Below, in pieces: positions 4,253-7,921 of a stretch of 52,541 bases of DNA; position 1 is the first letter of the stretch; every line of letters begins with the position of its first letter. The translations under genes were made by a program, and so were the position numbers. The stretch lies in the sequence record SRR22947727_2671, one strand, 5' to 3'. Under the pieces are notes generated by a model that was not told where the DNA came from, searched no databases, and was given only the letters and a program-made list of their open reading frames with translations.

Positions 4253-4681
4253 ATGAAAGTTAGCTATATCGGAAAAATTTCTGAAGAAAATCTGCCGGCA
4301 ATATTTGTCCCTTATTTTCTTGAGTCTGTGCATGCAGGGTTCCCCAGCCCTGCAAGCGACTATATTGAAAGTCCAATAGATTTAAATAAACATCTTATAA
4401 AAAATGGAGCAGCTACTTTTTTAGTTAGAGCCCAAGGCCAATCTATGCTTGGCTCTGGAATAACCGATCAGGCAGTATTGGTTGTTGATCGCAGTGTTAA
4501 ACCAGCGCATAACAGTATTGTTGTGGCATCTATTGATGGAGAGTTTGTATGCAAACGATTAAAGCTCAAGCCTAAAATGTGCTTGATGCCAGATAACCCC
4601 GATTACTCTCCTATCTTTATTAATCATGGTCAAGAATTAGAAATAGTAGGAACTGTTACAGCAGCTATTAATAAGTTCTAA
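4253..4681 (+). CDS. umuD: DNA polymerase V subunit UmuD (S24 autopeptidase)
   Basis: Cleavage site VHAGFPSPA, Ser motif GQSM, Lys motif VCKR; start moved from the track's TTG 4202 to ATG 4253, downstream of the operator. Confidence 0.92.
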   Translation: MKVSYIGKISEENLPAIFVPYFLESVHAGFPSPASDYIESPIDLNKHLIKNGAATFLVRAQGQSMLGSGITDQAVLVVDRSVKPAHNSIVVASIDGEFVCKRLKLKPKMCLMPDNPDYSPIFINHGQELEIVGTVTAAINKF

Positions 4682-5943
4682 TGGCACTTGCTTTGGTAGA
4701 TTGCGAAAGCTTTTATGCTTCATGCGAAAGGATCTTTCGTCCTGATTTAAAACATACGCCTATAGTTGTTCTTTCTAATAATGATGGTTGTGTGATTGCC
4801 AGAAGCAGCGAAGCAAAGAAGATGGGTGTTGGTATGGGAGTTCCATGGTTTAAAGTAAAAAATTCTTTTCTTTCCCAGGGCGGACAAGTCTTCTCATCAA
4901 ACTTTACATTTTATGGTGATATGTCAGCCAGAGTGATGAATATTCTAGAAGGCTTTGTTCCAGAGGTTGAGATTTATAGCATCGATGAAGCGTTCCTGGG
5001 ATTAGATTCTTTAGAAGAGCATTACAACTTATATGACTTTGGATGCCATATAAGAAGCCTAGTTAAACAATGGACAGGGGTTCCAGTCAGGATAGGGATA
5101 GCTCCAACAAAAACGCTGACTAAGATAGCTTTAAATGAAGCTAAAAGACTGAACGTACCAACCAAGGTTTATCAAATATCTACAACAAAAGAAATCAGAG
5201 AAGCCCTTCTTAATACTCCGGTCAATGATGTTTGGGGAGTTGGCAGAAGACTCACAGAACATCTTAATAAAGCCAAGATAACAAATGCACTGCAATTAGC
5301 AGACCTAGATCCAAATTATATTAAAAGAAAATTCAGTGTAGTCCTTGAGAGAACAGTGAGAGAACTTAGAGGCCAAAGATGTCTTAATATAGAAGAGAAC
5401 ATTTCAGCAAAAAAACAAATCGTAGTCAGTAGGAGTTTTGGCACAAGGGTTACAGACCTAAAAACCTTGAGGCCAATTGTTAGCAACTTCGCAGTAAGGG
5501 CTTCTGAAAAATTAAGGCATGAAAAACAAAAGTGCTCTCAAGTTTCAGTCTTCGTTAGAACGAGTCCTTTTAGTGATAATAAGCCTCAGCATACTGGATA
5601 TAAAACTATAGAGCTTTTTACCCCAACCAATGACACTAGAGATATTTTAGTAGCAGCTAAAAAAGCTCTCTTGCCTATTTTTAGATCTGGTTACGATTAT
5701 GCAAAAGCAGGTATTCTTTTGAGCAGATTTAGCAATGAAACTACAAAGCAATATTCTCTTTTTAAAGATCCAAATGAACCTAAAGAGAATTCAAAATTTA
5801 TGGAGTATATAGACCAACTCAATGCCTATGAGACTCAGATCTACTTTGCCTCACAAAATACAAAAAGATGGTCGCCTATGAAACAGAATATGACCTCACC
5901 CAAATACACAACTAGCTGGTATGAACTACCAATAGCAAACTAA
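4681..5943 (+). CDS. umuC: Y-family DNA polymerase V subunit UmuC
   Basis: ALVDCESFYASCE, VVLSNNDGCVIARS, YSIDEAF, C-terminal SP.YTT.W.ELP; TAATG coupling to umuD. Confidence 0.95.
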   Translation: MALALVDCESFYASCERIFRPDLKHTPIVVLSNNDGCVIARSSEAKKMGVGMGVPWFKVKNSFLSQGGQVFSSNFTFYGDMSARVMNILEGFVPEVEIYSIDEAFLGLDSLEEHYNLYDFGCHIRSLVKQWTGVPVRIGIAPTKTLTKIALNEAKRLNVPTKVYQISTTKEIREALLNTPVNDVWGVGRRLTEHLNKAKITNALQLADLDPNYIKRKFSVVLERTVRELRGQRCLNIEENISAKKQIVVSRSFGTRVTDLKTLRPIVSNFAVRASEKLRHEKQKCSQVSVFVRTSPFSDNKPQHTGYKTIELFTPTNDTRDILVAAKKALLPIFRSGYDYAKAGILLSRFSNETTKQYSLFKDPNEPKENSKFMEYIDQLNAYETQIYFASQNTKRWSPMKQNMTSPKYTTSWYELPIAN

Positions 5944-5973
5944 GTGCAAAAGCTTCTACTACAGCAAAAAAAT

Positions 5974-5989
5974 TGGCACAGATATTGCA
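5974..5989 (+). promoter_or_regulatory. Sigma-54 (RpoN) -24/-12 promoter
   Basis: TGGCAC-AGATA-TTGCA; GG (5975-76) and GC (5987-88) at the obligatory spacing; intergenic; followed by AGGAGG at 6005-6010. Confidence 0.8.
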
Positions 5990-6015
5990 ATAAATAAGGT
6001 ATTTAGGAGGTATTT

Positions 6016-6126
6016 ATGATTGATTATTGTTTAAGAGTCCATGAATTTTGCAGGCAAGAGCCTCTTTGGGCTGTAGCATTTTTCTTTTGTGGTTTTGTTA
6101 TAGGTGATACTTACTTCACTCTGTAA
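6016..6126 (+). CDS. Unannotated 36-aa small membrane protein MIDYCLRVHEFCRQEPLWAVAFFFCGFVIGDTYFTL
   Basis: AGGAGG 5 nt upstream of ATG 6016, TAA at 6124-6126; fills the gap exactly up to the convergent DUF2237 stop; one hydrophobic segment; below ORF-track cutoff. Confidence 0.75.
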   Translation: MIDYCLRVHEFCRQEPLWAVAFFFCGFVIGDTYFTL

Positions 6127-6129
6127 AAC

Positions 6130-6504
6130 TTAATTCATATCGATAGCAAATTCTTTTAGTATTTCAATATCGATTATAGAAGTAGTTTTTTTATTTGTTT
6201 TCTTTAAATATATTTTAGGAGCTCGGCCATGCTCGTATGCTTCTTTCCATCTCTCTGCACAAACACACCAAGAGTCTCCTGCTTTTAATCCTGGAAAATT
6301 AAACTCTGGCCTTGGAGTTGAAAGATCATTGCCTCTAGATTTTGAGAAATCTAGAAACTCATCTGTTATTAAAGAACATACGATATGAAGGCCTCTATCC
6401 ATTTGATCTGTGTGACAGAACCCGTCTCTAAAAAATCCAGTAATTGGATTTGAGCAACACTCGTCTATTAGTTCATTAAAAATATTTACTTGTTGAGTTT
6501 CCAT
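6130..6504 (-). CDS. DUF2237 family protein
   Basis: TGFFRDGFC.T, H.VC, FL.FSKSRGNDLSTPRPEF.FPGLK.GD.WCVCA.RW. Confidence 0.88.
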   Translation of the reverse strand: METQQVNIFNELIDECCSNPITGFFRDGFCHTDQMDRGLHIVCSLITDEFLDFSKSRGNDLSTPRPEFNFPGLKAGDSWCVCAERWKEAYEHGRAPKIYLKKTNKKTTSIIDIEILKEFAIDMN

Positions 6505-6566
6505 TGAAACAAATCTTATTATTTAAAAACAAAGATATCCAGCACCAATGTTGATAAAATAATTTT

Positions 6567-6893
6567 ATGGATAATAACGGCAAAGTTCTCTTCAATGAAA
6601 AATGTTCTATCTGCAATTTTGAGATTAAGCATTATAAAAAAAGATCACACTTAACTTTTGATGACTGCAGTCACATGGAAGATAAATATCTAAAAAAACT
6701 TCATGTAGTTTTCGATGACGAAAAAGAATTGGTTGGTGTTGATGCCTTTATTTATATCTGGAAAAGAACAAAAGGATATGGATGGTTGGGTAAATTTGTT
6801 GGCCTTCCGATTATCAAACAATGCGCTATTTTTGCTTATTCAATTTTGGCTTTTTTATTATTTTGGCGCTTTAAAATATTTAATCGTTCATGA
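6567..6893 (+). CDS. DCC1/DUF393-like thiol-disulfide oxidoreductase (short)
   Basis: N-terminal FNEKCSIC (DxxCxxC-like), LHV......GVDAF..IW, P.......AY. Confidence 0.7.
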   Translation: MDNNGKVLFNEKCSICNFEIKHYKKRSHLTFDDCSHMEDKYLKKLHVVFDDEKELVGVDAFIYIWKRTKGYGWLGKFVGLPIIKQCAIFAYSILAFLLFWRFKIFNRS

Positions 6894-7034: not shown

Positions 7035-7475
7035 ATGGCAATGAAACCACTTGATACAAAAGAAGCTTGCGGAATTTTAAATGAAATTATGGAGTACGAA
7101 TTAGCTGGTGTTGTTCGCTATACTCACTCAGCAATGATGATAACCGGACCCTATAGAATTCCTATTGTTGCCTTCTTAAAAGAGCAAGCAACTGAATCAC
7201 TTCTTCATGCTCAGGGAGCAGGTGAATTAATAGCGGGTCTTGACGGTCACCCTAGTCAAAGGATTGCAAAAATTGAAGAGACAGGAAAACATTCTATAAA
7301 AGATATTCTTGAAGAAAGTTTAGCTCATGAATTACATGCTGTGGGTTTGTATAAAAAACTTCTCGAAGAAGTTGAAGATAAATCAATCTATCTTGAAGAG
7401 TATGCTCGAGGAATGATCGGAGAAGAAGAACAACATTCTTTAGAACTTAAAAGAATGTTAAAAGATTACGGATAA
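7035..7475 (+). CDS. Bacterioferritin-like / ferritin-like domain protein
   Basis: Four-helix pattern E22, E54/H58, E99, E131xxH134; L.G.P loop; SD AAGGAG and -10 TATACT (7011-7016). Confidence 0.8.
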   Translation: MAMKPLDTKEACGILNEIMEYELAGVVRYTHSAMMITGPYRIPIVAFLKEQATESLLHAQGAGELIAGLDGHPSQRIAKIEETGKHSIKDILEESLAHELHAVGLYKKLLEEVEDKSIYLEEYARGMIGEEEQHSLELKRMLKDYG

Positions 7476-7483
7476 AAAAATAG

Positions 7484-7921
7484 TTAAACTTTTTTGAAAT
7501 ATCTTTGATGATGGGCTTCTGATAAATCTAAGAACTCTTTATTTACTTCATCTCTTATTGTCATCGGATCATAAATTTTAAGACTGGTAATACCAAACTG
7601 TTCAAGGTCCAAATTTTGTGACCCTGCTGCTCTTAATAAATCAAAAATCCAAGTTAATGGATCCATTGAATTATTATAGTTAATTGCATTCTCTTTAAGT
7701 TTGATGGCAAGCAAGTCAACATCATGAATCTTAAATCGCTCTTGAAGAATGAGTATTTTAAATTTTTCTAATCGATCATTAACTAATGCCCTCTCGTCTT
7801 GAGAGTATTTTGGCCAACTAATTATTTCATGAACAAATCTTTTACAGCCCTTGCACACATCATCTCCGTATGTTGTAGAGCAAATGCCTAGGCAAGGTGT
7901 TGTGGATCTGTTTTTTTGCAT
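7484..7921 (-). CDS. DUF1289 family Cys-rich (predicted Fe-S) protein
   Basis: TPCLGICSTTYGDDVCKGCKRF.HEII.W; divergent from acnB. Confidence 0.8.
   Translation of the reverse strand: MQKNRSTTPCLGICSTTYGDDVCKGCKRFVHEIISWPKYSQDERALVNDRLEKFKILILQERFKIHDVDLLAIKLKENAINYNNSMDPLTWIFDLLRAAGSQNLDLEQFGITSLKIYDPMTIRDEVNKEFLDLSEAHHQRYFKKV

Follow-up and report, generated by a model that had tools for sequence, protein, structure and literature searches.

Several small inner-membrane proteins of enterobacteria, among them AcrZ, KdpF, MgtS, MgtR and CydX, bind larger membrane proteins, and tiny hydrophobic peptides of a single helix are also known among the type I toxins (TisB, Hok, Ibs), which are kept under tight control. 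In the archaeon Methanosarcina mazei, the nitrogen-limitation small protein sP36 (61 aa) modulates ammonium transport at the membrane; it is a soluble protein that goes to the membrane after a nitrogen upshift and binds AmtB1 and GlnK1 (PMC10714827). The gene described here encodes a peptide of 36 aa and lies in a stretch of SAR86 DNA of 52,541 nucleotides (sequence record SRR22947727_2671), called the window in the following. The finding belongs to a known kind, the regulon-controlled bacterial microproteins, with an unusually instructive promoter history.

With the enterobacterial proteins, the SAR86 peptide shares the size class (30–50 aa), one transmembrane helix, a tiny stand-alone gene, control within one stress regulon and a helix with a conserved face that suits packing. 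It differs from them in having no similarity to any curated family and in its restriction to the SAR86 order; moreover its promoter is of the sigma-54 type, whereas the enterobacterial set relies on sigma-70 with a two-component activator, and its partner is only hypothetical. Like sP36, it is a candidate nitrogen-limitation small membrane protein, and binding to Amt, which is a guess, may be a further likeness; in contrast to the archaeal, 61-aa and soluble sP36, it is bacterial, of 36 aa and predicted to be transmembrane, and the two are not known to be similar in sequence. The likeness to ElaB/YqjD (DUF883) suggested in the preliminary description comes down to a C-terminal hydrophobic anchor: the peptide lacks the long cytoplasmic domain of these proteins, has about one third of their length, and gave neither a Pfam match at E up to 1 nor an NCBIfam family. 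Taken together, the data are in agreement with a SAR86-only cassette, switched by sigma-54 and NtrC, for a single-helix membrane protein that would tune a larger partner, a reading which we favour and hold to be reasonably probable.

The gap between umuC (4681..5943, + strand; Pfam IMS, IMS_C and DUF4113) and the convergent DUF2237 gene (6130..6504, − strand; 124 aa; Pfam DUF2237, E 2e-49) is 186 nt long and is filled by the whole cassette of promoter, leader and micro-ORF (5944..6129, +). The -24/-12 element, TGGCACAGATATTGCA, an exact TGGCAC-N5-TTGCA, occupies positions 5974–5989 (+) and is followed by the predicted transcription start at 6000 (+), placed by standard numbering 12 nt beyond the C in the -12 GC, by the Shine-Dalgarno sequence AGGAGG at 6005..6010 (+), which stands 5 nt ahead of the ATG at 6016, and by the 36-codon frame at 6016..6126 (+), with its TAA stop at 6124–6126. 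The stop codon of the DUF2237 gene begins 3 nt past that of the micro-ORF. The positions of the motif, the AGGAGG and the ORF and the length of the gap, as first reported, were all recovered when the sequence was read again. The ORF upstream of umuC matches Pfam Peptidase_S24. On the other side, many small Cys-rich or redox-type proteins are encoded in the neighbourhood (6567–6893, +; 7035–7475, +; 7484–7921, −), namely a DCC1-like thiol-disulfide oxidoreductase, a ferritin-like protein and a DUF1289 protein, besides DUF2237; no link of these to the micro-ORF is shown. The nearest genome, G001 (1.3 Mb, 94% complete), is 99% identical to the window across 5600–6600 and serves below as a proxy for the window's genome, not being the window's own assembly.

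Judged from sequence comparison, the 36-codon frame is a real, conserved protein gene found in the SAR86 order only. The tblastn search of relatives proposed in the preliminary description recovered intact 36-aa frames at 13 of 30 DUF2237 loci, with 55–97% identity. By profile search, a homologue was detected in 39 of the 139 genomes of the window's family (5 of 10 genera) and, at a length of 34–38 aa, in 72 of the 266 genomes of the SAR86 order, distributed over three of four families and nine of 22 genera. In a sample of Gammaproteobacteria of which 400 genomes were scored and one further genome was left unscored, three of the four SAR86-order genomes matched and none of the 396 others did. 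Among 1.84 billion representative proteins, the profile search with its limit at E 1e-3 retrieved 26 clusters, and what matches in each of them is a tiny protein or, where the call has been extended too far, its C-terminal end; the ESM Atlas holds only unnamed clusters of 36–37 aa, and the source annotation of the homologues, where they are named at all, is 'hypothetical protein'. In one case (P0026), the 90% cluster also files an unrelated protein of 1105 aa (P0034) with members of 40–44 aa, which is probably a clustering artefact. Neither the peptide nor its divergent members hit any Pfam or NCBIfam family, apart from one match at chance level (E 0.05), and this small-protein family, having no model in either collection, is newly recognised. 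The gene is not described in the accessible parts of the literature on SAR86 sigma-54, on NtrC-linked small membrane proteins and on leaderless sigma54 promoters.

The selection check gave the result expected for a translated frame. The pooled pN/pS was 0.32 in the annotated frame and 1.22 and 1.45 in the other two, so that the purifying selection looked for is seen in the annotated frame only; as these values come from 33 distinct 34-codon sequences that are kin to one another, they are descriptive and do not amount to a formal test. The number of variable sites at the first, second and third codon positions was 21, 19 and 32 of 34, respectively, and in many pairs the synonymous sites are saturated while the protein is retained. 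The distribution of the micro-ORF is patchy, since it occurs in 27% of the order's genomes and is missing from half of the window's own genus; the gene is therefore dispensable.

The pattern TGGCAC-N5-TTGCW has one exact match in the 52.5-kb window, and when up to one mismatch is allowed, six matches are found against 1.41 expected, a number reached by one of 100 shuffles. The AGGAGG hexamer, put forward at first as one of the strongest Shine-Dalgarno sequences of the window, is indeed present 5 nt before the ATG, but it is not rare there, with 14 occurrences found against 15.7 expected. What makes the arrangement significant is that relatives conserve the promoter, the spacing and the frame; the window's single sequence does not. 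In the window's family, [TC]GG[CT]A[CT]-N5-TTGC[ATC] stands upstream of 35 out of 35 distinct promoter-plus-ORF sequences, in which the T that precedes the GG and the A/T pair that precedes the TTGC are conserved too. Together with the pN/pS in the frame, this bears out the suggestion that promoter and ORF have been kept together in relatives.

Two layouts were distinguished among the 35 sequences. In the leadered one (23 sequences), the distance from TTGCW to the ATG is 25–32 nt and a Shine-Dalgarno sequence is generally present: AGGAGG in 13 copies, all distinct copies of the window's genus in which it is held at the same spacing, and a GGAG or AAGGA-type sequence in most others, with none visible in L092. 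In the tight layout (12 sequences), the ATG follows TTGCW by exactly 11 nt (n = 11) or 12 nt (n = 1) and no Shine-Dalgarno sequence is found. By standard numbering, a sigma-54 promoter sets the start of transcription about 12 nt downstream of the C in its -12 GC. Since such a start falls at the ATG, the 12 tight-layout copies imply a putative leaderless mRNA, which would begin at the A of the ATG or 1 base before it, and this rigid spacing gives independent support for both the promoter and the start codon. For the window, we infer a start near 6000, for which the fixed 11–12 nt spacing of the 12 leaderless-type relatives would be indirect support. The accessible parts of the literature searched, including PMC3616915, describe no case of a leaderless sigma54 mRNA, which is not proof of absence. 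Contigs of four metatranscriptome runs cover the region at a depth similar to that of the flanking genes, showing that RNA libraries contain the stretch. Contig breaks near 6003–6039 were considered as a mark of the transcription start and rejected, as they fall together with variants between strains at 5996 and 6040.

Across the SAR86 families, the -24/-12 motif, as read from the upstream regions, covaries with the sigma factor. When rpoN was counted by a PF04552 (Sigma54_DBD) match and the peptide by profile A4, the window's family (f1) had rpoN in 118 of 139 genomes and the peptide in 39 of 139; family f241 had rpoN in 39 of 47 and the peptide in 0 of 47; family f2 had rpoN in 0 of 30 and the peptide in 8 of 30; and family f3 had rpoN in 12 of 50, all of them weak matches, and the peptide in 25 of 50. 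The f3 matches that were inspected (G389 and G563) are frames of 84–91 aa covering the last 60 profile positions. The rpoN gene of G001 is a 427-aa frame (E 3e-43), so that the sigma factor required by the promoter first predicted does occur in the nearest genome, as in the bulk of the family. The motif was found at none of the 13 homologous loci of f2 and f3 scanned over 120 nt upstream, and no enhancer-binding protein was found in f2. Its loss in lineages without full-length rpoN would be indirect support for a dependence of transcription on rpoN where the motif is kept. The homologues persist without sigma-54 in both f2 and f3, which argues that the function of the peptide is not tied to the sigma-54 regulon.

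The f2 loci carry an upstream region of their own. At L132, L133, L136, L139, L142 and L143, two conserved hairpins and no -24/-12 element lie about 70 nt before the micro-ORF, the first hairpin with a C/U-rich loop and the second with a GC stem, a loop of TTCG and a run of T ending 3–5 nt before the ATG; no Shine-Dalgarno sequence is seen, and a sigma-70-like promoter stands upstream. L133 and L143, read by eye, have the same f2-type element. It has no Rfam match; it may function as an attenuator or a riboswitch-like leader, or be the gene of a small RNA. Directly 3' of the f2 homologue is a second micro-ORF of 28–33 aa with one hydrophobic helix (L132:2610-2708, L133:2605-2688, L142:2607-2696, L143:2607-2699), present in 29 of the 30 genomes of the genus and followed by a lipoprotein-type glutathione peroxidase-like gene (read by eye). 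As a shared partner of the peptide, this second micro-ORF was rejected, having only borderline matches (E 1e-4 to 1e-2) in the window's family; outside its genus, all its matches are at chance level. In f3, three genomes (G389, G563 and G573) keep an NtrC-like enhancer-binding protein of 432–465 aa (E 1e-69); in these, no full-length rpoN was found, only C-terminal Sigma54 DNA-binding-domain frames of 84–91 aa, or nothing. Either rpoN is too diverged or split in f3, or NtrC works there without sigma-54.

For sigma-54 to open DNA, an enhancer-binding ATPase is indispensable. Only one Sigma54_activat match is strong in G001, two weak ones lying within a single 750-aa frame, and five other near-complete genomes of the family likewise have one strong match each (6/6 in total). 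The strong match combines the domains Response_reg, Sigma54_activat and HTH_8, and in G001 it is NtrC according to the TIGR01818 ntrC equivalog model (644 bits against a cut-off of 558.6); its neighbour is NR(II) (250.6 against a cut-off of 240), the gene order being glnA-like, ntrB, ntrC. The listing of enhancer-binding proteins called for in the preliminary description thus comes down to a single strong one, NtrC, in each of the six genomes. The GlnII-like glutamine synthetase gene of that operon is preceded by a -24/-12 site and by two GCAY-N7-RTGC palindromes.

A loose -24/-12 pattern gave 21 matches in G001 against two for the reversed control, with a rough background of 6–14 matches in five genomes without full-length rpoN. 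Seven of the G001 matches are intergenic and correctly oriented. They precede the GlnII-like glutamine synthetase (glnA-like/ntrB/ntrC), a TonB-dependent receptor, the 36-aa micro-ORF, a 92-aa secreted protein (L100) without Pfam family, a Gcw_chp porin followed by glnK and amt1, amt2, and a 134-aa protein with a GTG start (L111:1554-1955), also without Pfam family. By the identity of the genes behind these sites, the set is a nitrogen regulon, of which the 92-aa and 134-aa genes are likely further SAR86 members. Since NtrC is the only enhancer-binding protein in the genomes examined, we infer, by elimination alone, that the micro-ORF is probably under the control of NtrC and of nitrogen limitation. 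The nitrogen link raised earlier is thereby plausible, with NtrC as sole activator and the same type of promoter before glnA and amt. The promoter of the micro-ORF resembles the NtrC/sigma-54 promoter of glnA in its GG and GC elements and their canonical spacing, and differs from it in lacking upstream NtrC palindromes and in the leaderless mRNA that its 12 relatives imply. The co-occurrence with amt is uninformative, as amt is carried by G001, G002 and G005, which have the peptide, and by G022 and G043, which do not; G005 has amt1 only.

The first alternative to be weighed keeps the sigma-54-type promoter and replaces the nitrogen signal, the gene responding to extreme NtrC levels or distant sites, to an undetected activator, or to another stress through a second overlapping promoter. 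No NtrC-type palindrome (GCAC-N7-GTGC type) lies within several kb of the window's promoter, and the single match in the 35 loci of the family is at background level. In the same direction point the homologues of rpoN-less lineages, which use other signals, and the neighbouring genes, which are related to redox or DNA damage. Against it, the six family genomes examined have one enhancer-binding protein each, and clear palindromes are found in G001 at the glnA site only and at no other of the seven intergenic sites, so that their absence here is not distinctive. We regard this alternative as having a small but real chance of being correct.

The product is predicted to be a small membrane protein with one transmembrane helix. 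In the AlphaFold2 model (alignment of 29 sequences; pLDDT 81), a helix of residues 2–14 is followed by a break at Pro16 and a helix of residues 16–35. Residues 1–16 (6016..6063, +), which comprise the N-terminal helix up to the invariant Pro16, are presumed to be cytoplasmic, and residues 17–36 (6064..6123, +) form the predicted single transmembrane helix, assigned from its hydrophobicity and its one-sided conservation, with a GxxxG face. The mean Kyte-Doolittle value is 1.63 for residues 17–36 of the window's peptide and 1.55 for residues 17–34 of the 29 sequences (range 1.26–1.88). Because all Lys and Arg lie within residues 1–16, the model points to an insertion in the inner membrane with the N-terminus inside. 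The amphipathic segment announced in the preliminary description is weak in residues 2–15, its hydrophobic moment being matched by 20% of shuffles.

In the family alignment, Y4, F11, C12 and P16 are invariant, and the transmembrane helix has a conserved face made of W18, F22, C25/G26, I29/G30 and Y33/F34 (GxxxG), with a conservation moment of 2.39 against 0.90 in shuffles, a value reached by 0.04% of 5000 shuffles. The three cysteines pointed out earlier (positions 5, 12 and 25) are present in the peptide, but as a conserved feature they stand only in part, Cys12 being invariant, Cys25 nearly so and Cys5 not. In the wider family, F11, P16 and G26 are invariant, and C12, W18, F22, F23 and G30 nearly so; on this pattern, the core of the protein consists of an aromatic residue, the kink at the proline and the GxxxG helix, and the cysteines are replaceable. 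A conserved face on one side of a helix is what helix-helix packing in membranes looks like, and the conserved GxxxG face of the model suggests that the peptide packs against a membrane partner, though it may instead pack against itself. No conserved neighbour gene was found beside the micro-ORF across the contexts examined.

The favoured reading, that of an NtrC-switched single-helix membrane protein, would then proceed as follows. Sigma-54 RNA polymerase would start near 6000 and give a 16-nt leader with a strong Shine-Dalgarno sequence. NtrC would switch the micro-ORF on together with glnA, glnK-amt1 and amt2 when nitrogen is scarce, a co-induction expected because sigma-54 needs an enhancer ATPase and NtrC is the only one present. 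The product would enter the inner membrane with its N-terminus inside, its short cytoplasmic helix being joined through a proline kink to the one transmembrane helix. In the most speculative step, the GxxxG/aromatic face would pack on a transmembrane helix of a larger protein and tune or stabilise it during nitrogen starvation, much as AcrZ, KdpF or MgtS do in enterobacteria; the most obvious candidate for this partner would be an ammonium transporter. A bolder version, which we hold to be doubtful, is that a microprotein made only under NtrC/sigma-54 control would plug, by its GxxxG helix, into an inner-membrane protein of nitrogen uptake, on the Amt side or on the TonB energising side, and retune uptake during starvation as a bacterial counterpart of sP36, with leadered and leaderless variants and a rewiring after the loss of sigma-54.

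The same structural features would also suit a membrane-perturbing, self-assembling peptide akin to type I toxins or holins, whose GxxxG oligomers would lower the membrane potential and slow growth at severe nitrogen starvation. Like TisB, Hok and Ibs, the SAR86 peptide is tiny, with one hydrophobic helix (here with a GxxxG motif) under tight control; a promoter silent without its activator, a stand-alone gene and a patchy distribution are equally in agreement with such a role. Unlike these toxins, it has a strong Shine-Dalgarno sequence that is exposed in the predicted fold, it is under order-wide purifying selection in streamlined genomes of 1.0–1.5 Mb, and no antisense RNA or antitoxin is evident, with no Rfam match and no sigma-70-like promoter on the opposite strand of the cassette. 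The lack of basic residues after residue 17 also speaks against a toxin. None of these points is decisive, and we consider the toxin-like role unlikely.

A further explanation makes the RNA the main product and the ORF secondary, the transcript acting by antisense or transcriptional interference on the convergent gene or as a dual-function sRNA. It could draw on the terminator scan, which found no intrinsic terminator between the ORF and the convergent gene, and on the convergent next gene abutting or overlapping the 3' end of the ORF in four of six context types. The next gene is convergent in the window's genus, g4, g5, g2 and f3, but which gene this is depends on the lineage (DUF2237, a metallo-beta-lactamase-like gene, panD, or other unnamed ORFs in f3), and g9 and f2 have a co-directional next gene, which in g9 varies between loci. 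When the predicted transcript and its 3' part were folded, the z-scores were -1.0 and -1.7, which is not significant, and a search of 5500–6700 with Rfam models (E up to 1) brought up nothing but two weak matches to microRNA families inside umuC, taken as chance. The synonymous sites are nearly saturated with the protein kept and are free to vary. The dual-function sRNA offered in the preliminary description is not supported, with no Rfam match and folding no better than that of shuffles, and RNA as the main product seems to us very improbable. A leader peptide was ruled out, the next gene being mostly convergent and different between contexts. Lastly, a 36-codon ORF and an 11-base motif could arise by chance in a single AT-rich gap, but a chance ORF beside a chance motif is refuted by the comparative data and deserves next to no credence, since frame, start, promoter and spacing are kept across genera despite the synonymous saturation, and the motif, expected within 135 nt at roughly 4e-4 per locus (a rough estimate), occurs at every one of the 35 loci.

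The cassette itself is of interest as a unit. In six peptide-less relatives (L013, L018, L020, L023, L029 and L033), the stops of umuC and DUF2237 lie side by side or overlap; because the two stops adjoin when the peptide is missing, the approximately 180 nt behave as a single insertable or deletable unit. The linkage between the micro-ORF and DUF2237 is kept in two genera only, and the two are far apart in g5, g2 and g9. Within the window's family, the cassette was found after umuC, after unrelated DNA, after tRNA-Arg(ACG) and after an ORF of 494–500 aa (a putative transporter gene), and the flanks are otherwise unalignable between contexts. The micro-ORF stands alone in every context seen, as the monocistronic unit proposed from the window would have it. 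In genera g5 and g2, the cassette begins 20–30 nt past tRNA-Arg(ACG) (L080, L088, L091, L117 and others), and runs at its 3' end up to or into a convergent gene, either a metallo-beta-lactamase-like one or panD. At L036 (genome G104), an 83-nt direct repeat (125–207 and 1468–1550, 83% identical) includes the 3' half of the micro-ORF and flanks a 1343-nt segment with DUF2237 and two small genes, which hints that the end of the cassette may be a recombination or insertion site.

In the surface ocean, few uncultured heterotrophs are as abundant as SAR86 bacteria. To our knowledge, they have never been grown in pure culture and their regulation is known from sequence only. As one of about seven sigma-54 targets in a 1.3-Mb genome, the micro-ORF would belong to the core response that a scarcity of nitrogen calls forth in these bacteria. 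Its family also offers a natural experiment in promoter evolution, in which the same 36 codons are found behind a leadered or leaderless sigma-54 promoter or behind a non-sigma-54 one, according to the retention of rpoN, and the gene may serve as a short and specific metatranscriptome marker for testing nitrogen stress in SAR86.
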